From assembly GCA_030390025.1 (NCBI GenBank), contig CM059431.1:112718001-112778000 (forward strand): 60,000 bases of DNA. The letters are read 5' to 3'. The translations under genes were made by a program, and so were the position numbers. This DNA is from Squalus acanthias (Eukaryota). Of the stretch, positions 6,301 to 59,980 are shown piece by piece. Positions within the stretch are counted from its first letter, which is position 1, and each line of letters starts with the position of its first letter. The notes below the pieces were generated by a model. It did no database searches. It was not told the DNA's origin and saw only the letters and a program-made list of their open reading frames with translations.

Positions 6301-9300
6301 GAGAGGAGCGATGCTATGGCTGAAAAATTAACTTCCAATGGTGTCCTGGAAAGGGACATGCAGTAATCTGGAGTCAGAGGAACAATGAGTGCGAGTTGGT
6401 AACAAAAACAAGGAGCCCCTTGAGCTCAGTGACGGCAGGGCTGATGGGTGCTGCAGAGTTCTTTGAGAGAGCAATACAAAAATGCATTTGATAAAAATCA
6501 ATCCTCGAGGAAAAGGTAGCGAGAATATTACATGCAGTGTCCAATCCAACACAAATTTTATTCATTAGCCTCTGTTCACTGTGTACATCAATGATTTGGA
6601 TATAGGACAAGAGGGAGCGGTGTCTAAATATATTTGAGACTGTACTAAATAGGAGGCATAGTAAATCATTCTGTAGAACCCAAATGAAGCTGGAAGGGGA
6701 TATTGATAATATAGAGAATCAACAAAAAAAGGTATATGGAATTCAATGTCAATAAATAGGTGGTACATTTTGGTAAAAAAAAAATTAAATAATTATACGT
6801 TGAATTGCGGGGGGTGGGAAGCTGGATAATGTGGAAGAATTAGGAGGTTCTGGTTCTGAAGATATTAAAAGCAGCACCTCAGGTCGATGAAGTCATAAGA
6901 ATGCTGAAGGAATACTAGGTTTTAGGAACACAGGTATGGATTCACTTGGATGCTGTCCACTATGATAAATAAATACAAATACAAAAATGGAGCAGTTCTT
7001 ACTAGAACGGAGGAGATTAAGGGATGATTTGGTATGAAGGACAGAGCAGATAGAAACAGACAGTTTCCAGTAATTGAGGGGTCTAGGGACATGGATACAA
7101 GATGCAAGAGATTTAGGACACAGAGCAGAATGTTTTTCTTTTACACAGATTTGAGGCAGTGGAATTCATGGTTGAAGCAGAGACCATGTCAATATTTAGA
7201 GGAGCTTAGATAGGTAGTTGAAGGGGGGCTATCAACATATGGGAACATAATAACATAAGAGAACATAATAACATAAGAATAGGAACAGGAGTAGGCCATT
7301 TGGCCCTTCGAGCCTGCTCCGCCATTCAATAAGATCATGGTTGATCTTCTACCTCACCTCCACTTTCCTGCACTATCCCCATATGCCTGGATTCCCTTAA
7401 TATTCAAAAAACTATTGATCTCTGTCTTGAATATACTCAACGACTGAGCTTCCACAGCCCTCTGGGGTAGAGAATTCCAAAGATTCACCACCCTCAGTGA
7501 AGAAATTTCTCCTCATCTCAGTCCTAAATGGCCGACCAATTATTCTGAGACTGTGACCCCTGGTTCTAGACTCCCCAGCCAGGGGAAACATCCTCCCTGC
7601 ATCTACCCTGTCAAGCCCTGTAAGAATTTTGTATGTTTCAATGAGATCACCTTTCATTCTTCTAAACTCTAGAGAATATAGGCCTAGTCTACTCAATCTG
7701 TCCTCATAGGACAATCCCCCCCTCCCAGGAAACAATCTGGTGAACCTTCGTTGCGCTCCCTCTATGGTAAGTATATCCTTCCTTAGGTAAAGAGATCAAA
7801 ACTGTACACAATACCCCAGGTGTGGTCTCAGAGCGGCGGCGGACCTGCGGGGAACCAGGCGGCGGCGGCGAGGTTTAAGAGGCGGCAGAGACCAGGTAGG
7901 CCTCAGAGCGGCGGCGGACCTGCGGGGAACCAGGCGGCGGCGGCAAGGTTTAAGAGGCGGCAGAGACCAGGTAGGCTTACCAATCTCCGAGCTTGGAGGG
8001 AGAGAAGTAAAAAGTAATCGAAGTGTGACGTCACCAGAAAGCAGGTAAGTAATTGGTTGGTGAGTATTTCTCTCTTTTTAAACTTAAACTCTGTGGTTTA
8101 TAGTTTCTAAGCTCTCTGTGGTGTAGCGGGGACTGTTGGTAAACCAGGGCCCTTAAGTATATCATTTAACTGTAGTGCAATTGGTGGGATTGATTTGTTT
8201 TAATTTAATTTGAATTAATTAAAGGGTAAGTCATGGCAGGAGAGCTCGGCCCCGTGGTATGCTCCTCCTGTGTATTGTGGGAAATCAGGGACCCTTCCGG
8301 TGTCATTGACAACCATGTGTACGGGAAGTGTATCCAGCTACAGCTACTGGCAGACCGCATTACGGCGCTGGAGCTGCGATTGGATGCTTATTGGAGCATT
8401 CGCGATGCTGAGAACCTCCTGAATAGCACGTTTAGCAAGTTGGTCACACCGCAGGCAAAGGGTGTACAGGCAGGAAGTAAATGGGTGACCACCAGGCAGA
8501 GTAAGAGGTGCAGGCAGGTAGTGCAGGGGTCCCATGTGGACATCCCCCTCTCAAACAGATATACCACTTTGAATACTGTTGGGGGGGATGACTTATCAGG
8601 GGAAGGCAGCAGCAGCCAACTTCCTGGCACCATGGGTGGCTCTGCTGCACAGGCTGGGAGGAAAAAGTGTGGAAGAGCTATAGTGATAGGGGACTCAATT
8701 GTAAGGGGAATAGATAGGCGTTTCTGCGGCTGCAACCGAGACTCCAGGATGGTGTGTTGCCTCCCTGGTGCAAGGGTCAAGGACGTCTCGGAGCGGCTAC
8801 AGAACATTTTGGAGGGGGAGGGCGAACAGCCAGCTGTCGTGGTGCACATAGGCACCAACGATATAGGTAAAAAAGGGGATGAGGTCCTAAAAGCAGAATA
8901 TAGGGAGTTAGGAGGTAAATTAAAAAATAGGACCTCAAAGGTAGTAATCTCAGGATTGCTACCAGTGCCACGTGCTAGTCAGAGTAGAAATAGGAGGATG
9001 TTTCAAATTAATACGTGGCTAGAGGAATGGTGCAAGGGGGAGGGATTCAAATTCCTGGGACATTGGAACCGGTTCTGGGGGAGGTGGGACCAGTACAAAC
9101 CGGACGGTCTGCACCTGGGCAGGGCCGGGACCGCTGTCCTAGGGGGAGTGTTTGCTAGTGCTGTTGGGGAGGGTTTAAACTGAAGTGGCAGGGGGTTGGG
9201 CACCTGAGCAGGGAGACAGAGGAAAGCGCGTCAGGAAGGGACAGAAGGTATGGAGTAAAAGGTAAAGTGTTAAAAAAGGAAAAAGCAGGAACTAAGTGTC

Positions 9301-12300
9301 ACAAAACATATTTGAAAGTTATTTATCTGAATGCACGTAGCATTCGTAACAAAATAGACGAGTTAACGGGACAAATAACTACGTATGGGTATGATCTTGT
9401 GGCCATTACAGAAACATGGCTGCAGGGTGACAACGACTGGGAACTAAATATGCCAGGGTATTTAACAATCAGGAAGGACAGGCAGGAAGGAAGGGGAGGT
9501 GGGGTGGCTATGTTAATAAAGGAAGGAATCACTGTAATACAGAGAAATGATATTGGGTCAAAGGATCAGGATAATGAAACAGTTCGGGTGGAGATAAGGA
9601 ATAATAAGGGGAAAAAAAACACTAGTGGGAGTAGTATATCGGCCTCCTAATAGTTGCAACTCTGCTGGAAGAAGTATTAATCAGGAAATAGTTGGGGCAT
9701 GTAATAAGGGAACAGCTATAATTATGGGGGATTTTAACCATCATATTAACTGGACAAATCAAATTGGGCAGGGCAGCCTTGAGGAAGAGTTTATTGAGTG
9801 TATTAGGGATGGATTTCTTGAGCAGTATGTAACTGATCCTACAAGGGGGCAAGCAACCTTGGACCTGGTCCTGTGTAATGAGTCAGGATTAATTAATAAT
9901 GTCCTAGTTAAGGATCCCCTTGGAATGAGTGACCATAACATGGTTGAATTCCATATCCAATTAGAGGGTGAGAAGGTTGGTTCTCAAACAAGCGTACTGA
10001 GCTTGAATAAAGGAGACTATGATGGTATGAGAGCGGAATTGATTAAAGTGGACTGGGAAAATAGATTAAAGGGTAAGACGGTACATGAGCAGTGGTGTTC
10101 ATTTAAGGAGTTATTTTACAACTTTCAAAAGAAATATATTCCACTGAGGAAAAAAGGGTGTAAAAGAAATGACAGCCATCCATGGCTAAGTAAAGAAATT
10201 AAGGATAGTATCCGACTAAAAACAAGGACATATAAGGTAGCCAACTAGTGGAGGATAGAAGATTGGGAAGTCTTCAAAAGACAGCAAAAAGTAACTAAAG
10301 GATTGATTAAGAAAGGGAAGATAGATTATGAAAATAAATTAGCAAAAAATATAAAAACAGATAGCAAGAGTTTCTATAGTTATATAAAAAGAAAAAGGGT
10401 GGCTAAGGCAAACGTAGGTCCCTTAGAGGATGAGACCGGGAAATTAATGGTGGGAAACATGGAGATGGCAAAAATGCTGAACAAATATTTTGTTTCAGTC
10501 TTTACGGTAGAGGACACTAAGAATATCCCAACACTGGACAAACAGGGGGCTCTAGGGGGGGGGGGGGAGGAGATAAATACGATTAAAATTACTAAGGAAT
10601 TGGTACTCAGTAAAATAATGGGACTCAAGGCGGATAAATCCCCTGGACCTGATGGCTTACATCCTAGGGTCTTGAGGGAAGTGGCAGTAGGGATTGTGGA
10701 TGCTTTGGTAATAATTTTCCAAAATTCCCTGGACTCAGCAAAGGTCCCGGCAGATTGGAAAACTGCTAATGTAACACCCTTATTTAAAAAGGGTAGTAGG
10801 CAGAAGGCTGGAAATTATAGACCAGTTAGCCTAACATCTGTGGTGGGTAAAATTTGGGAGTCTATTATTAAGGAGACAGTAACGGAACATTTAGATAAAC
10901 ATAATTTAATAGGACAAAGTCAGCATGGCTTTATGAAGGGGAAGTCATGTCTGACAAATTTGCTCGAGTTCTTTGAGGACATAACGTACAGGGTGGATAA
11001 AGGGGAACCAGTGGACGTAGTGTATTTAGACTTCCAGAAGGCATTCGACAAGGTGCCACATAAAAGATTATTGCTCAAGATAAAAAATCACTGGATTGGG
11101 GGGAATATTCCGGCATGGGTGGAGGATTGGTTATCTAACAGGAAGCAGAGAGTTGGGATAAATGGTTCATTCTCGGACTGGCAACCAGTAGCCAGTGGTG
11201 TTCCGCAGGGGTCGGTGCTGGGTCCCCAACTCTTTACAATCTATATTAACGATTTGGAGGAGGGGACCAAGTGTAACATATCAAAGTTTGCAGATGATAC
11301 AAAGATGGGAGGGAAAGTAGAAAGTGAGGAGGACATAAAAAACCTACAAGGGGATATAGACAGGCTGGGTGAGTGGGCGGAGATTTGGCAGATGCAATAC
11401 AATATTGGAAAATGTGAGGTTATGCACTTTGGCAGGAAAAATCTGAGAGCAAGTTATTATCTTAATGGTGAGAAACTGGAAAGTACTGCAGTACAAAGGG
11501 ATCTGGGGGTCCTAGTGCAAGAAAATCAAAAAGTTAGTATGCAGGTGCAGCAGGTGATCAAGAAGGCCAACGGAATGTTGGCTTTTATTGCTAGGGGGAT
11601 AGATTATAAAAACAGGGAGGTATTGCTGCAGTTATATAGGGTATTGGTGAGACCGCACCTGGAATACTGCATACAGTTTTGGTGTCCATACTTAAGAAAA
11701 GACATACTTGCTCTCGAGGCAGTACAAAGAAGGTTCACTTGGTTAATCCCGGGGATGAGGGGGTGGACATATGAGGAGAGGTTGAGTAGATTGGGACTCT
11801 ACTCATTGGAGTTCAGAAGAATGAGAGGCGATCTTATTGAAACATATAAGATTGTGAAGGGGCTTGATCGGGTGGATGCGGTAAGGATGTTCCCAAGGAT
11901 GGGTGAAACTAGAACTAGGGGGCATAATCTTAGAATAAGGGGCTGCTCTTTCAGAACTGAGATGAGGAGAAACTTCTTCGCCCAGAGGGTAGTAGGTCTG
12001 TGGAATTTGCTGCCCCAGGAAGCTGTGGAAGCTACATCATTAAATAAATTTAAAACAGAAATAGATAGTTTCCTAGAGGTAAAGGGAATTAGGGGGTACG
12101 GTGAGCAGGCAGGAAATTGGACATGAGGCTGAGTTCGGATCGGTCAGGGCCCTGTGGGTGGCGGAGCGGGCCCAGGGGGCCGGGTCCTGCTCCTACTTCT
12201 TGTGTTCTTTAGATTTGAGGTTAGGATCAGATCAGCCATGATCTTATTGAATGGCGGAGCAGGCTCGAGGGGCCGAATGGCCTACTCCTGCTCCTATTTC

Positions 12301-51200: not shown

Positions 51201-54200
51201 CACCTACAGGCATAAATGGTACAGCAAGCAAATGTTGACACCTGAATGCATTTTCACAAAGATAGCATGACAGGACTTTTCAATAGAATAGAATGTTGAA
51301 CCCACTCAGCAATTTTAATATATATTTATATTCTAAATTTAATCCTTTGTTTCCTCATTAATTTTGTCCACCCATTTTCTTCCACCCAGTCCTACATTCA
51401 TTAACTCCTTGCTGGAGAGTTTCAGGGTTGGTCGTCACCATCCAGTGCCGTGCCCAATTAGCTACTTTCATGCGACGAGAGTCTTTATAGTCAGTCAGAA
51501 GACACTTTGATTACAGTCTGATCCTGCCATTATCTGAAGTTCACGCAGACTCTTCCAGCAAGCATTACACACCAAAAGGTGGCACTTCAGGCTAGGTTTT
51601 CCATCCCCACTCCAGGGCAGCTAAGTCTACCCATAGCACCGCAATGGCTAGCATTCAACAACTTGTATTTATATAGTGCCTTTAACATAGAAAAACATCC
51701 CAAGGTGCTTCACAGAAGCGTAAACAGACAAAAAAGAGACACCGAACCAAAGCATATTAGGAGGGGTGACCAAAAGAAGTGGATTTTAAGGAGTCTTAAA
51801 GGAGGAGAGGGAGGTGGAGCGGTGGCGAGGAGTAGGGAAGGAACTCCAGAGCTTAGGGCTTAGATAGCTAAGGCATGGCCGTCAATGGTTGGGGCCAAGT
51901 GAGCGGGCTGAAGGCATGGCCGTCAATGGTTGGGGCCAAGTGAGCGGGCTGAAGGTATGGCCGTCAATGGTTGGGGCCAAGTGAGCGGGCTGAAGGCATG
52001 GCCGTCAATGGTTGGGGCCAAGTGAGCGGGCTGAAGGCATGGCCGTCAATGGTTGGGGCCAAGTGAGCAAGCTGAAGGCATGGCCGTCAATGGTAGGGAG
52101 AAGCGAGCGGGCTGAAGGCATGGCCATCAATGGTGGGGAGAAGCGAGCGGGCTGAAGGCATGGCCATCAATGGTGGGGAGAAGCGAGTGAGCTGAAGGCA
52201 TGGCCATCAATGGTGGGGAGAAGCGAGTGGGCTGAAGGCATGGCCATCAATGGTGGGGAGAAGCGAGTGGGCTGAAGGCATGGCCATCAATGGTGGGGAG
52301 AAGCGAGCGGGCTGAAGGCATGGCCATCAATGGTGGGGAGAAGCGAGCGAGCTGAAGGCATGGCCATCAATGGTGGGGAGAAGCGATGGGCTGAAGGCAT
52401 GGCCATCAATGGTGGGGAGAAGCGATGGGCTGAAGGCATGGCCGTCAATGGTGGGGCGAAGCGAGTGGACTGAAGGCATGGCAGTCAATGGTGGGGAGAA
52501 GCGAGCGAGCTGAAGGCATGGCAGTCAATGGTGGGGAGAAGCGAGCGGGCTGAAGGCATGGCCATCAATGGTGGGGAGAAGCGAGTGGGCTGAAGGCATG
52601 GCAGTCAATGGTGGGGAGAAGCGAGCAGGGGGGGGGGGGATGTACAAGAAGCCAGAGTCAAAGAAAAGCATCCCAATTTCCCCCTTCCCACCCAGTTTTC
52701 TTCTCCATTCTCTCCTTTTAGAGGGAATGGTGGCATAGTGGTTATGTTACTGGACTAGTAATCCAGAGACCTGGACTAATGATCTGGAGACGCGAGTTCA
52801 AATCACATCACGGCAGCTGGGAAATTTAAACTCAGTTAATTAAATAAATTTGAAATGAAAAGCTAGTATCAGTAACGGTGACCATGAAACTATCAGATTG
52901 TCATAAAAACCCATCTAGTTCACGAATGTCCTTTAGGGAAAGAAATCTGCCATCCTTCCCTGGTCTGGCCTATATGTGACTCCAGACCCACAGCAATGTG
53001 GTTGACTCTTAACTGCCCTCTGAAATGGCCTAGCAAGCCACTCAGTTGTAAAAAACCGCTACGAAAAACAAAAGGAATAAAACCGGACGGACCACCCGGT
53101 ATCGACCACAGCACCGGCTACGGACACGACAACGGCACACCCAGCCCAGTCAAACCTGCAAATTCCTCCTCACCAACATCTGGGGGCTTGTGCCAAAATT
53201 GAGAGAGCTGTCCCACAGACTAGTCAAGCAACAGCCTGACAGTCATACTCACAGAATCATACCTTTCAGCCAAGGTCCCAAACTCCTCCATCACCATCCC
53301 TGGGTATGTCCTGTCCCACCGGCAGGACAGACCCACCAGGGGTGGCGGCACAGTGGTATACAGTCAGGAAGGATGGCCCTGGGAGTCCTCAACATTGACT
53401 CCGGACCCCATGAAGTCTCATGGTTTCAGGTCAAGCATGGGCAAGGAAACCTCCTGCTGATTACCACCTACCGCCCTCCCTTAGCTGATGAATCAGTACT
53501 CCTCCATGTTGAACACCACTTGGAAGAAGCAGAGTAGCAAGAGCACAGAATGTACTCTGGGTGGGGGACTTCAATGTCCATCACCAAGAGTGGCTCGGTA
53601 GCACCACTACTGACTGGCCGAGTCCTGAAGGACATAGCTGCCAGTCTGGGCCTGCGACAGGTGGAGAGAGAATCAACACGAGGGAAAAACCTACTTGACC
53701 TCGTCCTCACCAATCTACCTGTCGCAGATGCATCTGTCCATGACTGTGGTGGTCACTGCTACCAATACTGTCATTGTGGAGACAAAGTCCCGTCTTCACA
53801 CTGAGGACACCCTCCATCGTGTTGTGCGGCACTACCACCGTGCTAAATGGGATAGATTCAGAACAGATCTAGCAGCTCAAAACTGGGCATCCATGAGGCG
53901 CTGTGGGCCATCAGCAGCAGTAGAATTGTATTCCACCACAATTTGTAACCTCATGGCCGGGCATATCCCTTACTCTACCATTACCATCAAGCCAGGGGAC
54001 CAACCCTGGTTCAATAAGGAGTGTAGAAGAGCATGCCAGGAGCAGCACCAGGCATACCTAAAAATGCGGTGCCAGCTTGGGGAAGCTGCAACACAGGACT
54101 ACATGCATGCTAAAAAGCGGAAGCAGCATGCTATAGATAGAGCTAAGCGATCGCACAATCAACGGATCAGATCAAAGCTCTGCAGTCTTGCCACATCCAG

Positions 54201-57200
54201 TCGTGAATGGTGGTGGACCATTAAACAACTAAAGGGAGGAGGAGGCTCCATGAATATCCCCATCCTCAATGATGGTGGAACCCAGCACGTGAGTGCAAAA
54301 GACAAAGCTGAAGCGTTTGCAACCACCTTCAGGCAGAAGTGCCGGGTGGATGATCCATGTCGGCCTCCTCCTGAGGTCCCCACCATCACAGAAGCCAGTC
54401 TTCAGCCAATTCGATTCACTCCACGTGGTATCAAGAAACGGCTGAGCGTACTGGATACAACAAAGGCTATGGGCCCTGACAACATCCCAGCTGTGGTGCT
54501 GAAGACTTGTGCTCCAGAACTAGCTGCACCTCTAGCCAAGTTGTTCCAGTACAGCTATAACACTGGCACCTATCCGACAACGTGAAAAACTGCCCAGGTA
54601 TGTCCTGTCCACAAAAGCAGGACAAATCCATTCCGGCCAATTACCACCCCATCAGTCTACTCTCAATCATCAGCAAAGTGATGGAAGGTGTCGTTGACAG
54701 TGCTATCAAGCAGCACTGACCAATAACCTGCTTACTGATGCCCAGTTTTGGTTCCACTAGGACCACTCGGCTCCAGACCTCATTACAGCCTTGGTCCAAA
54801 CATGGACAAAAAGAGCTGAATTCCAGAGGTGAGGCGAGAGTGACTGTCCTTGACATCAAGGCAGCATTTGACCGAGTGTGGCATCAAGGAGCCCGAGTAA
54901 AACTGGGTCAATGGGAATTGGGGAGGAAAACTCTCCACTGGCTGGAGTCATACCTAGCACAAAGGAAGATGGTTGTGGTGGTTGGAGGTCAATCACAGCC
55001 CCAGGACAGGACATCGCTGCAGGTGTTCCTCAGAACAGTGTCCCAGGCCCAACCATCTTCAGCTGCTTTATCAATGACCTTCCCTCCATCATAAGTGGGG
55101 ATGTTCGCTGATGACTGCAAAGTGTTCAGTGCCATTCACAACTCCTCAGATAATGAAGCTGTCCATGCGCACATGCAGCAAGACCTGGACGACGTTCAGG
55201 CTTGGGCTGATAAGTGACAGGTAAAATTCGCGCCACACAAATGCCAGGCAATGACTATCTCCAACAAGCAAGCGTCTAATCACCGTCCCTTGACATTCAA
55301 CGGCAATGTCATTGCCGAATCCCCCACCATCAACATCCTGGGGGGGGTCACCATTGACCAGAAACTTAACTGGGCCAGCCACATTAATACTGTGGCAACA
55401 AGAGCAGGTCAGAGGCTGGGTATTCTGTGGCAAGTGGCTCACCTCCTGACTACCCAAAGCCTTTCCAGCATCTCCAAGGCACAAGTCAGGAGTGTGATGG
55501 AATACTCTCCACTTGCCTGGATAAGTGCAGCTCCAACAACACTCAAGCAGCTCAACACCATCTAAGACAAAGTAGCCCACTTGATTGGCACCCTATCCAC
55601 CACCTTAAACATTCACTCCCTCCACCACTGGCGTACCTTGGCTAAGTGTGTACCATCTACAAGATGCACTGCAGCAACTCCCCAAGGCTCCTTCGACAGC
55701 ACCTCCCAAACCTGCGACCTCTACCACCTAGAAAGACAAGGGCAGCAGGCACATGGGAACACCACCACCTCCAAGTTCCACACCATCCTGACTTGGAAGT
55801 ATATCGCCATTTCTTCATCGTCGCTGGATCAAACACCTGGAACTCCCTCCCTACATTCACCACACAGACTGCAGCAGTTCAAGGCGGGGGCTCACCACCA
55901 CCTTCTCAAGGGCAACTAGGGATGGGAAATAAATGCTGGCCTTGCCAGTGACACCCACATCCCATGAACGAATAAAAAAACCTCCCTTTCTGGAGTATAA
56001 TTCCTCAGGCAGCAATTCCCCTCCAGTACCATGACAATATAATCATTCATCATTTGTGAACCTTCATAGTGTGTGCCGTCAGGCTATTTGCAGAGGACAG
56101 CACAGATGTACCTAATCTTGTATAGAAACTCGAAGTTGCAGCAGAGAATGCTGGATAGGAATTGAGCAGGTACACCGACCTTTTCTTTCCCACTCCCCTT
56201 CACATCCCTAACCCAGGGGTATTGCAAAATTGCAGTGCCACTACCAATGCCTCAGCTGAAAATTTAAGTACAGGAAGTGTTTCAAAGTTTTCTCCAGGTT
56301 TTCCACCTGATTGACAGGCTAGCTGCCTGTCGGGAAAGCCTGCAGAAGGACGGGAGGGGGGGTAAGCGTGAGAGGGCGATTTACAGGGTAGCTTGTTGGG
56401 CCTGGAGGAAATACTCCTGCTTCTCCTGGCCCATAAGCAATGCTGTAAATGCACTTACCTTACGGACCCAGCCCTTCTCACCTGTCGGGTTTCCTGAGGC
56501 CAGGAAAACCCAGCCGACACGAGTTAAAAATAGAAACTGTGTTAAAATGCAGGCACACAGCCTCCTTTTAAAGCTTTAAAATGACCGACCTGCCTCCTGA
56601 GAGTGGATTGGTCGCCCGCCCCTCATTCCCCCTCCGTTAAAACCATAAGTGGGCAGGCTGGAAATTTTTTAAATTTTAACTTCCCACCCGTTTGAGCATT
56701 CAAATTGCCCCCATATTCTCAAGGCAATGGCGACCAACACTAGTCGCCCCAAGTCTCAGTGTTATCAGCTATATGAGTATCTACTTTCTGAACATTGGAA
56801 GGAACTACAGAGACAAAGGACAGCGTGAGTCATGCTAGCCATCATGACCTCTCTAGTTTTTTTGCTTTCTTCACTTTGTATAAATATCTTGCCTCTACTG
56901 CATTCCTTCCCAGATGCTCAGTGCTTGGGGGAAAGAAGTGTGGGGTGAAAACTCTGAGTCAGTAGGATGCACAGACCACACAGTCAGTAATGAGTAACCA
57001 GGTTTACAGCATTGAGCTTGGACACCTTGGCTAAGTGTGTACCATCTACAAGATGCACTGCAGCAACTCCCCAAGGCTCCTTCGGCAGCACCTCCCAAAC
57101 CCGCGACCTTTACCACCAAGAAAGACAAGAGCAGCAGGCGCATGGGAACACCACCACCTCCAAGTTCCCCTCCAAGTCACACACCATCCTGACTTGGAAG

Positions 57201-57745
57201 TATATCGTCGTTCCTTCATCGTCGCTGGATCAAACACCTGGAACTCCCTCCCTAACAGCACTGTAGGAGTACATTCACCACACAGACTGCAGCAGTTCAA
57301 GGCGGCGAGAGAGAATCAGCCTCTAAACAAAGTATTAATGACACAAATCAATCAAAAAAAATCTAGAATCCTTACTGATAATGTGCAAGTCTTTCTCTAG
57401 ATCAAACAAGGAGAGGCCGCAAGCATGTAGACACTTCCTGGCTAGCTTGAGCTGCAGCTCCTGTTGAAGTACAGGCTCTGTGCTTGTTGCGTATATCCGA
57501 ACTACAAAACCATCCTACAAGAGAGGGGGGAATAATATTGCTGATTACCTCATGTAAACTTCATTAGGTAATAATGCATGCACCGAATTAAAACTGGATA
57601 GTACTGCCACCATAAAAATATACTCAAGCAAAATTGTTTGAAAAGTTCATTGTTACAAATAATATACTTGCATCTTTTGATGCTGTAATTTGATTGATGT
57701 ATTCTCCATCTGTGAAAAGGATGTTCTGTCCTTCAGCCTGACAAC
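99..57745 (-). CDS. MYCBP2: MYCBP2 (PAM/PHR1) E3 ubiquitin ligase, partial; 24 internal coding exons, gene extends beyond both window ends
   Basis: Spliced translation follows vertebrate MYCBP2 colinearly ([16 protein letters not shown]...[10 protein letters not shown]...[14 protein letters not shown]...NRFESHGGGWGY...GQIPQLLY...LNCLDQ). Exon lengths sum to 3365 nt with matching phases. Confidence 0.97.
1435..1627 (-). CDS. MYCBP2: MYCBP2 exon ([23 protein letters not shown]...CEIYPIS), 193 nt
   Basis: atatag| ... |gtacag, phase 0-1. Confidence 0.95.
3007..3579. mobile_element. Putative non-autonomous DNA transposon (GC-rich, imperfect terminal inverted repeats)
   Basis: Ends ggccagaatttta...taaaattcccacc; the 3' half is homologous to 56450-56715 (gcacttacct...cgggtt..cc.gaggcc..gaaaccc...atgacc..cctcctg.gag). 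Confidence 0.55.
3648..3744 (-). CDS. MYCBP2: MYCBP2 exon ([32 protein letters not shown]), 97 nt
   Basis: gtgcag| ... |gtgagt, phase 2-0. Confidence 0.94.
3879..3962 (-). CDS. MYCBP2: MYCBP2 exon, end of PHR domain ([27 protein letters not shown]), 84 nt
   Basis: tttcag| ... |gtatgt, phase 2-2. Confidence 0.95.
4050..4200 (+). mobile_element. Degenerate LF-SINE-like tRNA-derived SINE fragment
   Basis: ctttcaacct...ttcaaattcagcc...aagtctc...gtagtctcaaccc resembles a LF-SINE head and body; highly decayed. Confidence 0.35.
4444..4578 (-). CDS. MYCBP2: MYCBP2 exon, PHR domain ([44 protein letters not shown]), 135 nt
   Basis: tttcag| ... |gtaaga, phase 2-2. Confidence 0.95.
6560..7240 (+). mobile_element. 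Old, decayed CR1 LINE 3' fragments
   Basis: Remnants of CR1 RT and 3' motifs (tgtacatcaatgatttgga, ggaattcaatgtcaataaat, ttaagggatgattt). Confidence 0.55.
7827..7976 (+). repeat. Two 75 bp CpG-rich tandem monomers at the LINE 5' end
   Basis: ctcagagcggcggcggacctgcgggg...accaggtaggc at 7827 and 7902, one mismatch. Confidence 0.9.
8233..9183 (+). CDS. CR1 ORF1p: N-terminal Cys motif and coiled coil plus SGNH/GDSL esterase domain
   Basis: Uninterrupted 316 aa with CSSC, heptad [12 protein letters not shown], and SGNH blocks IGDSIV, PGA, HIGTND, DGLH. Confidence 0.92.
   Translation: MAGELGPVVCSSCVLWEIRDPSGVIDNHVYGKCIQLQLLADRITALELRLDAYWSIRDAENLLNSTFSKLVTPQAKGVQAGSKWVTTRQSKRCRQVVQGSHVDIPLSNRYTTLNTVGGDDLSGEGSSSQLPGTMGGSAAQAGRKKCGRAIVIGDSIVRGIDRRFCGCNRDSRMVCCLPGARVKDVSERLQNILEGEGEQPAVVVHIGTNDIGKKGDEVLKAEYRELGGKLKNRTSKVVISGLLPVPRASQSRNRRMFQINTWLEEWCKGEGFKFLGHWNRFWGRWDQYKPDGLHLGRAGTAVLGGVFASAVGEGLN
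9180..12126 (+). pseudogene. CR1 ORF2p (APE endonuclease plus reverse transcriptase) with one +1 frameshift (~9615) and one in-frame TAG (10246)
   Basis: Motifs [61 protein letters not shown] across ORFs 9267..9650, 9625..10248 and 10303..12126. Confidence 0.9.
12881..13260 (-). mobile_element. 5'-truncated CR1 3' end nested in the host CR1
   Basis: ORF 12978..13217 (C-terminal ESRTRGH...RRNFF...WNSLP) plus 3' UTR and tail aacataagaacataag. Confidence 0.85.
13805..14658. mobile_element. Putative non-autonomous DNA transposon nested in the host CR1
   Basis: Interrupts CR1 ORF2; ends ggctggaattttg...gcggg / cccgc...caaaatcgcggcc form imperfect inverted repeats. Confidence 0.65.
16367..16458 (-). 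CDS. MYCBP2: MYCBP2 exon, PHR domain ([30 protein letters not shown]), 92 nt
   Basis: tactag| ... |gtatat, phase 0-2. Confidence 0.95.
16874..17460 (+). mobile_element. Penelope-like element 3' fragment with inverted pseudo-LTR and hammerhead ribozyme cores
   Basis: 17011-17070 encodes [18 protein letters not shown] (GIY-YIG C-terminus typical of PLEs); 16874-17010 is the reverse complement of 17329-17460; CTGAYGA...GAAACGTT cores. Confidence 0.8.
17497..17624 (-). CDS. MYCBP2: MYCBP2 exon, PHR domain ([17 protein letters not shown]...GEYTAKIK), 128 nt
   Basis: gtttag| ... |gtgagt, phase 1-0. Confidence 0.95.
17733..17858 (-). CDS. MYCBP2: MYCBP2 exon ([14 protein letters not shown]...YSVVNRFE), 126 nt, start of PHR1 domain
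   Basis: aaacag| ... |gtaggt, phase 1-1. Confidence 0.95.
19545..19800 (+). mobile_element. L2-clade LINE 3' fragment
   Basis: GGRAFS...PKLWNSLP...FKTLLKT coding remnant plus aaaggtgctatataaatacaagttgttg tail. Confidence 0.8.
19910..20082 (-). CDS. MYCBP2: MYCBP2 exon ([14 protein letters not shown]...[10 protein letters not shown]...HGALHIL), 173 nt
   Basis: ccaaag| ... |gtatgg, phase 2-1. Confidence 0.94.
20154..21278 (-). mobile_element. 5'-truncated CR1 LINE (RT C-terminal half), sense to MYCBP2
   Basis: ORF 20225..21175 with [10 protein letters not shown] and FADD, followed by the 3' tail. Confidence 0.92.
22360..23083. mobile_element. Putative non-autonomous DNA transposon with internal hairpins and a tandem duplication
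   Basis: Ends gacccgtaatttgcgg / ccgcaaattcagggat; 26 bp hairpin at 22812-22867; ~72 bp AT-rich duplication at 22607-22753. Confidence 0.65.
23897..24050 (-). CDS. MYCBP2: MYCBP2 exon ([22 protein letters not shown]...DPVYDVIW), 154 nt
   Basis: atacag| ... |gtaatg, phase 1-2. Confidence 0.95.
24448..24652 (-). CDS. MYCBP2: MYCBP2 exon ([18 protein letters not shown]...[10 protein letters not shown]), 205 nt, GC donor
   Basis: ttgtag| acceptor; protein colinearity (IIG|LVPAS) requires the donor ATAG|gcaaga, phase 0-1. Confidence 0.92.
24715..25340 (-). mobile_element. Decayed L2-clade LINE 3' fragment
   Basis: Reverse complement resembles 19545-19800 and 36780-37150 (NSLPKP...LLKTHLF; tail). 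Confidence 0.7.
25864..25981 (-). CDS. MYCBP2: MYCBP2 exon ([10 protein letters not shown]...[22 protein letters not shown]), 118 nt
   Basis: tttcag| ... |gtaaga, phase 2-0; preceded by a 77 nt intron. Confidence 0.95.
26059..26140 (-). CDS. MYCBP2: MYCBP2 exon, RCC1-like repeat ([26 protein letters not shown]), 82 nt
   Basis: ctacag| ... |gtaaca, phase 1-2. Confidence 0.95.
26345..26790 (+). mobile_element. Decayed tRNA-derived SINE-like repeat (related pieces on the minus strand at ~51420-51640 and ~56030-56260)
   Basis: Motif-level similarity between the three regions only. Confidence 0.35.
28158..28277 (-). CDS. MYCBP2: MYCBP2 exon ([19 protein letters not shown]...[10 protein letters not shown]), 120 nt
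   Basis: tttcag| ... |gtatgc, phase 1-1. Confidence 0.95.
29165..29500 (-). mobile_element. CR1 3' fragment
   Basis: ORF 29166..29384 VRFWNLLP...FKRKLD plus tail. Confidence 0.75.
33425..33532 (-). CDS. MYCBP2: MYCBP2 exon ([35 protein letters not shown]), 108 nt
   Basis: cctcag| ... |gtactt, phase 1-1. Confidence 0.92.
34578..35974 (+). mobile_element. 5'-truncated CR1 LINE (RT region, frameshifted)
   Basis: ORFs 34778..34960, 34980..35300 and 35302..35865; tail cctatttcttatgttatg; same family as the 7243-16033 host. Confidence 0.92.
36025..36468 (+). mobile_element. Old DeuSINE (SacSINE1-like) copy
   Basis: gatgagacattaaatcgggg...aaagatcccatggcac Deu-type core; homologous to 41966-42434. 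Confidence 0.7.
36780..37150 (+). mobile_element. L2-clade LINE 3' fragment
   Basis: ORF 36760..37119 [16 protein letters not shown]...[10 protein letters not shown] plus tail. Confidence 0.8.
37528..37632 (-). CDS. MYCBP2: MYCBP2 exon ([34 protein letters not shown]), 105 nt (102 nt with distal NAGNAG acceptor)
   Basis: ttcttcag|cag|ga acceptor, |gtatgt donor, phase 1-1. Confidence 0.92.
38625..38770 (-). CDS. MYCBP2: MYCBP2 exon ([23 protein letters not shown]...PLDLLL), 146 nt
   Basis: ttttag| ... |gtgagt, phase 2-1. Confidence 0.95.
41966..42434 (-). mobile_element. DeuSINE (SacSINE1-like), well preserved
   Basis: tRNA head (TGGCTCAGTGG A box, GGTTCAAGTCC B box), Deu core (ggatgagacattaaaccgagg...taaaagatcccatggc), L2-type tail. 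Confidence 0.85.
42591..42725 (+). mobile_element. Penelope-like pseudo-LTR fragment (mutated hammerhead core)
   Basis: ttgatgaaagatcatcgacctgaaacgttaa...cagatgatgtctgacctgctgagt; homologous to 17333-17460. Confidence 0.75.
42840..43044 (-). CDS. MYCBP2: MYCBP2 exon, acidic and Cys-rich insert ([16 protein letters not shown]...CTVCGDC...RVPG), 205 nt
   Basis: gagtag| ... |gtgggt, phase 1-2. Confidence 0.95.
43173..43484 (+). mobile_element. HE1-type V-SINE
   Basis: tRNA head gggcagcacggtggcatagtggttagcact, V-domain tgtgtggagtttgcacattctccccgtgtctgcgtgggtttcctccggg, CR1-derived tail gatgggccgaaatggcct. Confidence 0.9.
44818..44976 (-). CDS. MYCBP2: MYCBP2 exon, RCC1-like repeat ([19 protein letters not shown]...[16 protein letters not shown]...GGK), 159 nt
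   Basis: aaatag| ... |gtaagc, phase 1-1. Confidence 0.95.
45096..45260 (-). CDS. MYCBP2: MYCBP2 exon ([13 protein letters not shown]...[15 protein letters not shown]), 165 nt
   Basis: ttgtag| ... |gttggt, phase 1-1. Confidence 0.94.
45313..45621. mobile_element. Tc1/mariner (pogo/Tigger-like) MITE, 309 bp
   Basis: Perfect 14 bp TIR CAGGTTGAGCGTCC, TA target duplication on both sides, internal TCCGG repeats. Confidence 0.88.
46240..46640 (+). mobile_element. CR1-type 3' fragment with a distinct 3' UTR
   Basis: ttcttttcccagagaatggtggacctctggaacaggctgcc coding remnant; ends ttttatgttc. Confidence 0.6.
47040..47244 (-). CDS. MYCBP2: MYCBP2 exon, RCC1-like repeat ([11 protein letters not shown]...GEDGES), 205 nt
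   Basis: ccctag| ... |gtacaa, phase 0-1; ORF 46972..47244. Confidence 0.95.
47903..48637. mobile_element. Putative non-autonomous DNA transposon containing a (GA)n microsatellite
   Basis: Ends gacttggattttgcgg / cctgcaaaatccggtcc; (GA)n at 48196-48226; internal inverted repeat cagcaacttcc/ggaagttgctg. Confidence 0.6.
50007..50083 (-). CDS. MYCBP2: MYCBP2 exon ([25 protein letters not shown]), 77 nt
   Basis: tatcag| ... |gtatgt, phase 1-0. Confidence 0.95.
51655..51870 (-). mobile_element. L2-clade 3' fragment adjoining the minisatellite
   Basis: caacaacttgtatttatatagtgcctttaac tail; ccagagcttaggg. Confidence 0.75.
51870..52628. repeat. Minisatellite, 19 copies of a 39-41 bp unit
   Basis: Unit gctgaaggcatggccRtcaatgg(t)tgggg...gagcgg; copies counted by the aatgg anchor. 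Confidence 0.95.
52724..55980 (+). mobile_element. Apparently full-length single-ORF LINE (APE-EN plus RT, CR1-group-like, decayed) with a tRNA-like 5' head
   Basis: A box 52731-52741, B box 52796-52804. Coding remnants [42 protein letters not shown] across ORFs 53190-55565. 3' end ...cccatgaacgaataaaaaaa. Confidence 0.88.
56265..56715. mobile_element. Putative non-autonomous DNA transposon related to 3007-3579
   Basis: Shared internal motifs; ends caaattgcccc. Confidence 0.5.
57024..57306 (+). mobile_element. Internal fragment of the 52724-55980 LINE family lacking its 3' terminus
   Basis: Near-identical to 55636-55886. Confidence 0.85.
57376..57514 (-). CDS. MYCBP2: MYCBP2 exon ([46 protein letters not shown]), 139 nt
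   Basis: ttgtag| ... |gtaagg, phase 0-1. Confidence 0.95.
57672..57745 (-). CDS. MYCBP2: MYCBP2 exon ([24 protein letters not shown]), 74 nt, GC donor
   Basis: ctccag| acceptor, |gcaagt donor, phase 1-0. Confidence 0.92.
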
Positions 57746-58497: not shown

Positions 58498-59980
58498 CGA
58501 GCCAAGCTGTTCCAGTACAGCTACAACACTGGCATCTATCCGACAATGTGAAAAACTGCCCAGGTATGTTCTGTCCACAAAAAGCAGGACAAATCCAATC
58601 CGGCCAATTACCGCCCCATCAGTCTGCTCTCAATCATCAGCAAAGTGATGGAAGGTGTCATCAACAGTGCTATTAAGCGGCACTTACTCACCAATAACCT
58701 GCTCACTGATGCCCAGTTTGGGTTCCGCCAAGATCACTCGGCTCCTGACCTCATTACAGCCATGGTCCAAATATGGACAAAGGAGCTAAATTCCAGAGGT
58801 GAGGTGAGAGTGACTGCCCTTGACACCAAGGCAGCATTTGACAGAGTCTGGCATCAAGGAGCCCTAGTGAAACTGAAATCAATGGGAATCAGGGGGAAAA
58901 CGCTCCACTGGCTGGAGTCATACCTAGCACAAAGGAAGATGGTTGTGGTGGTTGAAGGTCAATCACAGCCCCAGGACATCGCTGCAGGAGTTCTCAGGGC
59001 AGTGTCCTAGGCCCAACCATCTTCAGCTGCTTCATCAATGACCTTCCCTCCAACATAAGGTCAGAAATGGGGATGTTCGCTGATGACTGCACAGTGTTCA
59101 GCGCCATTCGCAACTCCACAGATAATGAAGCAGTCCGTGTCCGCATGCAACAAGACCTGGACAACGTTCAGGCTTGGGCTGATAAGTGGCAGGTAACATT
59201 CGCGCCACAGAAGTGCCAGGCAATGACTATCTCCAACAAGCGAGAGTCTAACCACCTCCCCTTGACATTCAATGGCATTACCATCGCCGAATCCCCCACT
59301 ATCAACATCCTGGGGGTCACCATTGACCAGAAACTTAACTGGACCAGCCACATAAATACTGTGTCAACAAGAGCAGGTCAGAGGCTAGGTATTCTGCGGC
59401 GAGTGTCTCACCTCCTGACTCCCCAAAGCCTTTCCACCATCTACAAGGCACAAGTAAGGAGTGTGATGGAATACTCTCCACTTGCCTGGATGAGTGCAGC
59501 TCCAACAACACTCAAGAAGCTCAACACCATCAAGGACAAAGCAGCCCGCTTGATTGGCACCCATCCACCACCTTAAACATTCACTCCCTCCACCACCGGC
59601 GTACCGTGGCTGCAGTGTGTACCATCTACAAGATGCACTGCAGCAACTTGCCAAGGCTTCTTCGGCAGCACCTCCCAAACTTGCGATCTCTTCCACCTAG
59701 AAGGACAAGGGCAGCAGGCGCATGGGAACACCACCACCTCCAAGTTCCCCTCCAAGTCACACACCATCCTGACTTAGAAGTATATCGTCGATCCTTCATC
59801 GTCGCTGGGTCAAAATCCTGGAACTCCCTCCCTAACAGCACTGTGGGAGTACCATCACACCACGGACTGCAGCGGTTCAAGGCGGCGGCTCACCACCACC
59901 TTCTCAAGGGCAACTAGGGATGGGCAATAAATGCTGGCATTGCCAGCGATGCCCTGATCCCATAAATGAATTTTTAAAAA
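58498..59980 (+). mobile_element. 5'-truncated copy of the 52724-55980 LINE family (RT region)
   Basis: ORFs 58645..59010, 59067..59576 (FADD) and 59606..59917; same 3' end gggcaactagggatgggcaataaatgctgg. Confidence 0.92.

Follow-up and report, generated by a model that had tools for sequence, protein, structure and literature searches.

Introduction

In the textbook division, long interspersed nuclear elements (LINEs) are genes of RNA polymerase II (Pol II), and SINEs (short interspersed nuclear elements) count as parasites transcribed by RNA polymerase III (Pol III) that borrow only the tail of a LINE. Among the closest described systems, the partner LINEs of the tRNA-derived SINEs that depend on bipartite RTE/Vingi elements are outlined as being about 3.1-3.9 kb long, with deletion derivatives arising repeatedly (Kojima 2018, PMC5786205), and in the trypanosome pairs ingi/RIME and L1Tc/NARTc the shared first ~77 nt are described as acting as an internal promoter (PMC3383444, PMC1874656). 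Here we report on a tRNA-headed LINE family of Squalus acanthias and its companion SINE, starting from a copy at 52723/4-55980 in a 60,000-nt stretch of contig CM059431.1 (assembly GCA_030390025.1, positions 112,718,001 to 112,778,000 of the forward strand; hereafter the window, in whose numbering coordinates are given). In this family a head of SINE type forms the 5' end of the autonomous LINE itself, and the SINE has the look of a descendant of that LINE that arose by internal deletion. A sequence-only reading of the window had proposed that the element is transcribed by Pol III and translated cap-independently, and our analysis tentatively favors transcription of the LINE from its head.

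Results

Anatomy of the element

The element is very probably a full-length though decayed copy belonging to a very abundant head-bearing LINE family of the stringent type, in which a short overlapping frame precedes the frame for an apurinic/apyrimidinic endonuclease (APE)-type endonuclease (EN) and a reverse transcriptase (RT), and whose template RNA began at the first base of the head. The features of this copy and of two further members of the family in the window are as follows.

52723/4-55980, + strand: decayed full-length LINE copy, ~3.26 kb, with one long EN+RT frame
52723-52815, + strand: tRNA-Thr(AGT)-like head, the 5' terminus of the LINE (from sequence, and from ARAGORN on other copies)
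52731-52741, + strand: A box TGGCATAGTGG in the head (from sequence)
52750-52766, + strand: anticodon-like arm CTGGA/CTAGTAA/TCCAG, with AGT at 52757-52759
52771-52787, + strand: duplicated second arm in the head (from sequence)
52794-52804, + strand: B box GAGTTCAAATC in the head (from sequence)
52816-53050, + strand: leader (~230 nt), the "body" common to the SINE family, holding AUG 52996 (from SINE alignments to 52724-53040/53062)
52996-53202, + strand: short upstream frame (frame A), 68 codons here, overlapping the EN-RT frame
53052-55919, + strand: EN-RT frame (frame B), with frameshifts and stops in this copy (from the list of open reading frames (ORFs), Pfam and tblastn)
54746-54749, + strand: the only TTTT of this copy, a private mutation (from run counts, contigs and other copies)
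55895-55980, + strand: 3' tail common to LINE and SINE (from SINE 3' parts, the fold and the termini of 14 copies)
57024-57305, + strand: third, internal fragment of the LINE family, between the full copy and the sister copy, aligning to 55635-55887 at 87% identity
58495-59971, + strand: 5'-truncated sister copy, aligning to 54529-55973 at 88% identity

The A box, the AGT arm and the B box, followed by the leader and then the EN-RT ORF, lie where the sequence-only reading had placed them. It had set the start of the element at 52724; aligned copies put the family 5' end one base earlier, at 52723, with the sequence GGGAAYGG, and the rest of the proposed span holds. Nine collinear copies range from 3.22 to 3.31 kb in length. 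Pairwise differences between LINE copies are ~8-13%, so the sampled copies are old.

Linkage of the head to the coding frame

A search of the own genome, a 3.7 Gb assembly, with head plus leader (52724-53060) returned 8186 first-look candidates. All 40 that were scored are 91-100% identical over the whole query, and at all 29 other loci picked on this query the alignment begins at 52708-52736 and continues into the EN/RT body. Refetching 20 loci at 4.2 kb gave nine that are collinear over 52724-55980, four that reach both ends with one internal deletion, and seven that are broken off or rearranged inside the fetched stretch. Because this sample had been chosen on the head itself, a second was drawn on LINE-only sequence (53070-53420; 3825 candidates), and the 450 nt upstream of 20 matches were taken. 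The head is reached in 11 of these 20 (ten at 52718-52735, one with an internal deletion), and the other nine are 5'-truncated, at 52762, 52795, 52913, 52918, 52925, 52925, 52992, 53026 and 53061, with unrelated DNA upstream; none of the 20 copies in the LINE-only sample has an alternative 5' end sequence.

Loci selected on the tail (n=29, three of them outside the filter applied to the list of matches) are ordinary 5'-truncated LINE copies that start at 54362 to 55852. Head or leader sequence occurs within the 1.5 kb flanks of only two of them (L067 and L076), in both cases as a separate neighboring copy, and the LINE is thus not sitting inside SINE copies. Across many copies the family displays the common 3' end and variable 5' truncation characteristic of LINEs, and the level of pairwise identity between LINE copies stays even from the head through the leader and over the LINE-only boundary (52724-53105). 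For all the full-length copies examined, these observations support head, leader and EN-RT frame as a single unit of transcription and retrotransposition. A head present only in the window copy is excluded, as head and ORF are linked in 29/29 head-selected and 11/20 LINE-selected loci.

Two smaller observations concern the leader. Four of the 20 copies in the LINE-only sample (L184, L186, L191 and L194) have their 5' ends within the 13-nt span 52913-52925, each with unrelated upstream DNA, for which a rough scan estimate gives P ~0.01. The head-bearing copy L185 contains, at positions 282-312 of the locus, a 31-nt inverted segment matching window positions 52903-52933.

The companion SINE family

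A 381-nt SINE copy met by chance in locus L035 recovers 8573 candidates, and a second SINE subtype recovers 11290. As seen in 22 aligned copies (28 were mapped), the SINE consists of the first 320-340 nt of the LINE joined to its last 70-100 nt, the 5' part ending at 53032-53062 and the 3' part beginning at 55877-55911. Identity to the query copy is 77-84% for subtype a; in a tree built on the 5' 320 nt of 41 LINE-attached and 27 SINE sequences, these copies fall into a long-branched clade of their own. Subtype b copies, at 83-91% identity, are mixed with LINE-attached heads in the same tree. Thirteen subtype b copies fall into at least four to five junction classes, some of them common to three copies, and contigs from four sequencing runs of four organisms contain the same variety of joints, with 2812-2888 nt skipped.

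There is thus little doubt in our minds that the tRNA-SINE is the same element minus the region from ~53050 to ~55890, its copies being "bipartite" derivatives that have lost the interior and retain head, leader and RT-recognition tail. The variety of junctions is what would be left if head-bearing LINE RNA had undergone internal deletion many times and some of the products had then been amplified. Bipartite non-autonomous derivatives of this sort are described for RTE and Vingi LINEs (Kojima 2018, PMC5786205; Kojima 2020).

The tRNA-like head

The family has a tRNA-derived 5' head with A and B boxes, as SINE2 elements do. SINE2 elements are also short (~100-700 bp) and non-coding, which excludes the 3257-bp EN+RT element from the class and admits only its deletion derivatives of ~380-400 bp. 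The A box, which begins at base 9 of the element, fits the consensus TRGCNNAGTGG, and the B box, at about base 72, matches in its family majority form 9 of the 11 positions of GGTTCGANTCC. Type-2 Pol III promoters direct a start at a set short distance upstream of the A box; the family has this layout, with a workable spacing between the boxes and a 5' end a few bases before the A box.

The likeness to a tRNA is incomplete. In the window copy ARAGORN called no tRNA, and the only Rfam match at E<=1 was a chance one, to a snoRNA. Three of 29 other copies do yield an ARAGORN call, a 92-nt tRNA that begins exactly where the element does (two Thr-AGT and one Ile-AAT). The minimum-energy folds of four heads did not form a cloverleaf. 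The earlier description of the head as Thr-like agrees with the AGT arm and the two Thr-AGT calls in other copies.

Runs of T on the sense strand

Pol III terminates at runs of four or more T (T4 in the following), and its transcripts lack an m7G cap. The 3257-nt sense strand of the window copy contains one T4 run, compared with 19 A, 7 C and 9 G runs of four or more, and our count agrees with the sequence-only reading in finding a single TTTT, at 54746. This run is private to the copy: nearly all contigs of the four sequencing runs read G at 54749 (in X1, 10727 of 10743.5 depth units), and no other copy has a T4 there. Other copies, aligned in 75 pieces with a total of 100,747 nt, contain 23 T4 runs, or 0.23 per kb vs 1.42 expected at a T frequency of 0.205, and G runs number 2.38 per kb at a G frequency of 0.224. 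The 23 runs lie at 14 places, and since none of these is common to more than four of ~30 covering copies, the founder had no TTTT in its 3.26 kb. Base composition predicts 4.6 TTTT, where one is seen in the window copy and none in the founder. The founder thus carries no terminator run between its start and its end, a state that is of weak significance under codon-preserving nulls; codon-order shuffles of 14 copies expect 1.0-2.7 T4 per copy (P 0.02-0.35).

Comparison with other LINEs indicates that this property is not general. Five other LINE ORF pieces of the window contain 16 T4 vs 15.1 expected and have TT odds ratios of 0.97-1.12, vs 0.78 in the focal LINE. Six close metagenome relatives, which are 43-68% identical to a homologue (P0003) that is itself ~45% identical to a translated copy of this LINE, contain 25 T4 vs 25.6 expected in 10.9 kb, and ARAGORN finds no tRNA in them; L101, the full relative, starts at an ordinary AUG and carries an (AAT)n tail. 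Back-translation of the focal RT half (558 codons) according to codon usage in L101 or in a CR1-like LINE of the same genome predicts 3.8 T4, with a probability of 0.012-0.014 for none. Phenylalanine codons in this 558-codon open stretch are TTT 1 : TTC 13, vs 11:14 in the CR1-like LINE of the window and 13:16 in the relative. In 14 pooled, non-independent copies, TTT is the most avoided of the T-ending two-fold codons (0.19 vs 0.32-0.50), and CTT and GTT are low. On these results the T-run poverty is real, derived, lineage-specific and produced by codon choice; it is compatible with selection against Pol III terminators and no proof of it, and the statistic is suggestive only. The depletion put forward by the sequence-only reading hence goes beyond base composition, and is weak when set against codon-preserving and dinucleotide shuffles, so that composition explains part of it.

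One of the control LINEs, at 8230-12126 (+ strand), has an ORF1 with a GDSL-like esterase domain followed by EN and RT, a CR1/L2-like layout; its C frequency is 0.15, and it contains T4 at the expected rate.

Coding frames and relatives

Frame A, which begins at AUG 52996 in the SINE-shared leader, has 75-76 codons in four of 14 copies and 68 in the window copy; of the other nine copies, six have it cut short, two have it made longer by frameshifts, and in one a deletion has fused it. In the -1 register relative to frame A, the EN-RT frame opens at 53052 after two stops. None of the 14 copies has an AUG in this frame ahead of the EN motif, and homologues begin M(E)VNIRGL at that place. The sequence-only reading had described an EN frame open from 53052 without an upstream AUG, which applies here and in the 13 other copies. 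It had also reported no ORF1; the EN-RT frame is indeed the sole long frame, and a short overlapping frame does lie upstream of it. No canonical X XXY YYZ heptamer for -1 frameshifting was seen in the A/B overlap of aligned copies, which were read by eye only, with no systematic scan.

Translations of the window copy and of other copies match Pfam Exo_endo_phos_2 / Exo_endo_phos and RVT_1, as is characteristic of APE-type LINEs. In tblastn searches with the 934-aa homologue P0002, residues 2-931 are covered on several copies. Homologues are 40-46% identical, 920-971 aa long and of the same domain composition, and are found on contigs of 3.1-9.4 kb. Pieces of the LINE protein, at 51-83% identity, also occur in gene models that bear shark and ray species names. 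With a full-length homologue as the query, many copies are without frameshifts but have 1-8 stops, and one 5'-truncated copy has no stops. Over a 315-aa stretch, nearly every one of the 125 other copies listed has at least one in-frame TGA, which is far commoner than TAG or TAA, and five of the 125 are without any stop; the excess of TGA is probably due to CGA -> TGA decay at CpG.

RTE-1 has a short overlapping first ORF. The present family shares with RTE-like elements a length in the range ~3.1-3.9 kb, one long ORF, and bipartite derivatives with several junctions, and its size, its long frame with a short overlapping one, and its derivatives fit candidate membership of the RTE clade. Length, single long ORF and bipartite non-autonomous derivatives are among the traits that the literature on this clade sets out (Kojima 2018, PMC5786205; Kojima 2020).

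Termini and flanks

The EN-RT frame of the window copy stops at TAG 55917-55919, after which there is a 60-nt tail. The tail is predicted to fold into an outer stem, GGATGGG/CCCACATCC, around a hairpin, GCTGGC-CTT-GCCAG (55935-55949), at -15.2 kcal/mol. AATAAA motifs are present near the 3' end of this copy. The termini of 14 copies give GAAT(T)nA(n) as the 3' terminal motif of the family, and the T5 noted earlier at the 3' end of the sister copy (59971) is present and lies inside this variable motif. More fully, the terminus reads GAAYGAAT(T)nA5-7, where n is 0 to 4 in the majority of LINE copies; the sister copy has T5, and L050 has T10 (55970-55980, 59968-59979, L031-L050 and L081-L100). 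In the SINE, the terminal T run is T4 or longer in five of 22 copies, as read by eye from the alignment. The run could be the element's own Pol III terminator or a product of RT slippage.

Some LINE clades produce no target-site duplication. A search of the flanks of 14 copies for such duplications gave ungapped matches no better than those of mismatched flank pairs (best P 0.11), in copies that are ~6% decayed each. Directly upstream of the element in the window, at 52400-52640, lies a minisatellite with a period of ~40 nt and a unit like GGCATGGCAGTCAATGGTGGGGAGAAGCGAGCGGGCTGAA, followed by a G12 run.

Discussion

Possible transcription from the head

Judged from sequence, transcription of the whole LINE by Pol III from the head is the simplest reading of the fixed 5' end, and we would give it a probability of roughly 0.4. 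Under this reading, the A and B boxes would recruit TFIIIC, TFIIIB and Pol III, with a start ~8 nt before the A box, as in the SINE. The polymerase would then read through 3.26 kb to the variable terminal T run or to the first T run of the flank; full read-through would be possible because the founder's sense strand is without a run of four T. The uncapped RNA would be translated cap-independently, its EN-RT frame being without an AUG, and the protein made from it would act in cis, on the 3' stem-loop of the RNA that encoded it. Since progeny keep the head, the template RNA must start at or before it, and the LINE and the SINE share their 5' start, GGGAAYGG, 8 nt before the A box. It is this inheritance of the head, and not the T4 count, that is the strongest argument for Pol III. 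The more inclusive proposal, in which a Pol III-made 3.3 kb LINE RNA is purged of T4 by codon choice, its AUG-less EN-RT frame is translated uncapped, and LINE and SINE are one lineage differing by internal deletion, asks more of the same sequences, and we hold it a little more tentatively.

A number of points weigh against transcription by Pol III. We know of no protein-coding natural Pol III transcripts of ~3 kb. No intact copy was found among 126 scored protein matches, the longest open frame being 787 aa. The T4 deficit is modest by several measures: a dinucleotide shuffle of the window copy expects 2.2 TTTT (P 0.31), synonymous-codon shuffles expect 1.4-2.6 T4 per copy, with zero seen in ten of 14 copies (P 0.05-0.16), and as the copies share one ancestor, the zero-T4 result is in effect one observation. 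The C frequency of the focal LINE is 0.28 vs 0.15 in other LINEs of the window, and the codon shift may be a matter of general C-richness. Among 80 unrelated metagenome LINE ORFs, 15 are likewise without T4, mostly T-poor ones for which no more than 1.8 are expected. The 5' ends clustered at 52913-52925 may reflect a second start site, downstream of the head, or a place where the reverse transcriptase stops. Finally, a Repbase curator describes LINEs as Pol II units, and SINE length as limited by the processivity of Pol III (Kojima 2024, PMC10886601).

A separate observation was made among the metagenome ORFs. Thirteen that are T-poor (0.17-0.19) have no TTTT where ~16 would be expected in sum (L111, L113, L114, L116, L117, L122, L127, L129, L131, L134, L135, L151 and L171), so the absence of T4 can arise from codon bias alone in other lineages.

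The field's default view has LINEs transcribed by Pol II (Kojima 2024, PMC10886601), which here would act from an ordinary internal promoter in the leader that happens to start at the first base of the head, with the head a passenger, the boxes of importance only to the SINE, and the T-run poverty a by-product of C-rich codons. This would agree with a generally C-rich and T-poor element, with AATAAA motifs near the 3' end, and with a T4 deficit that is only weak under a codon-preserving null. An internal promoter should, however, keep its old start and lose an added head, yet the head is found in 11 of the 20 LINE-selected copies and other 5' ends in none; T-run poverty is, moreover, absent from close relatives and from LINEs of the same genome. 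We therefore consider transcription by Pol II from the leader unlikely. The intermingling of type-b SINEs and LINE-attached heads in the 5' 320-nt tree, and the four of 20 copies that end within 52913-52925 (rough P ~0.01), would also be accommodated if the LINE RNA started downstream, for instance near that cluster, and the RT in each round jumped onto abundant SINE RNA somewhere in the ~125 nt that the LINE and the SINE body have in common, copying the SINE head. Template switching is the accepted route of head acquisition (Kojima 2018, PMC5786205; Kojima 2020). Here it would have to succeed in most events, given 11 head-bearing copies vs four that end in the cluster. The pairwise identity profile over 52724-53105 is flat and shows no step where the switch is proposed, and a T4-free ORF is not among the predictions of this reading. 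The junction classes, at least four to five in 13 type-b SINEs, also fit an origin from head-bearing LINE RNA better than a single SINE master that supplies heads to the LINE, and overall we find recurrent switching improbable.

HDV (hepatitis delta virus)-like ribozymes give 5' ends by processing in some other LINEs, and a comparable role might be played here by RNase P, trimming read-through Pol II transcripts at the head to give a precise uncapped 5' end. That end does lie exactly at tRNA position +1, and the main frame has no AUG, but the head folds poorly as a tRNA (an ARAGORN call in three of 29 other copies and none in the window, no Rfam tRNA, and four folds that are not cloverleaves), and a good substrate would be cut at its 3' side as well, removing the head from the template; we regard trimming as very doubtful. 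A SINE lying by chance beside a 5'-truncated LINE, or site-specific insertion of the LINE into SINE copies, was considered and rejected. The same junction is found in every full-length copy, and 5'-truncated copies have unrelated DNA upstream and no SINE 5' halves, so adjacency of either kind is refuted in the own genome and has next to no probability left.

Implications

If the head does drive the LINE by Pol III, a natural cellular element would for the first time be seen to have its mRNA made by Pol III, the length limit that is assumed for Pol III-driven retroelements would be removed, and a SINE could arise from a LINE directly, in one step. Should Pol II make the RNA instead, the family still shows that a tRNA head can become a fixed part of an autonomous LINE, reversing the order usually proposed for the birth of SINEs. 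This LINE/SINE pair offers a real, though unproven, chance of something categorically new.

Comparison with known systems

A literature search retrieved no LINE described as Pol III-driven or as having a tRNA head at its terminus, apart from a passing remark on RTE-1_DAn. That element is, like the present one, an autonomous LINE with tRNA-like sequence, a comparison that relies on the passing description only; the remark treats it solely as a source of spurious matches and does not describe the position, function or T-run content of the sequence. We know of no report of a head on HER1. The tRNA-derived SINE HE1 of sharks and rays and its partner LINE HER1 resemble our pair, by description only, in sharing a tail (Ohshima 2013, PMC3747384).

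Retroelements that use a small-RNA-derived Pol III promoter as their own are represented by the "TRIMp3" elements Cassandra, Helenus and Ajax (Kojima 2024, PMC10886601). Unlike the LINE described here, these are of the long terminal repeat (LTR) type, non-coding and at most 1.3 kb long, and their autonomous partners are argued, in the account given there, to need Pol II. The ingi/RIME and L1Tc/NARTc pairs of trypanosomes are alike in that the short element consists of the 5' and 3' ends of an autonomous LINE (PMC5786205, PMC3383444, PMC1874656). Their shared 5' module is, as these sources present it, a Pol II-dependent promoter with a ribozyme rather than a tRNA-derived, Pol III-type head.

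Closest in architecture are the tRNA-SINEs that depend on bipartite RTE/Vingi LINEs (CoeSINE4, SINE2_Gav, SINE2-1_EC, AfroSINE and Bov-tA), in which, as in the present SINE, a tRNA head is followed by a LINE 5' region and a LINE 3' tail (PMC5786205). In those pairs, as they are set out there, the head is on the SINE only and is thought to have been added to a headless deletion derivative, whereas here the autonomous, coding partner itself bears the head at its 5' terminus.

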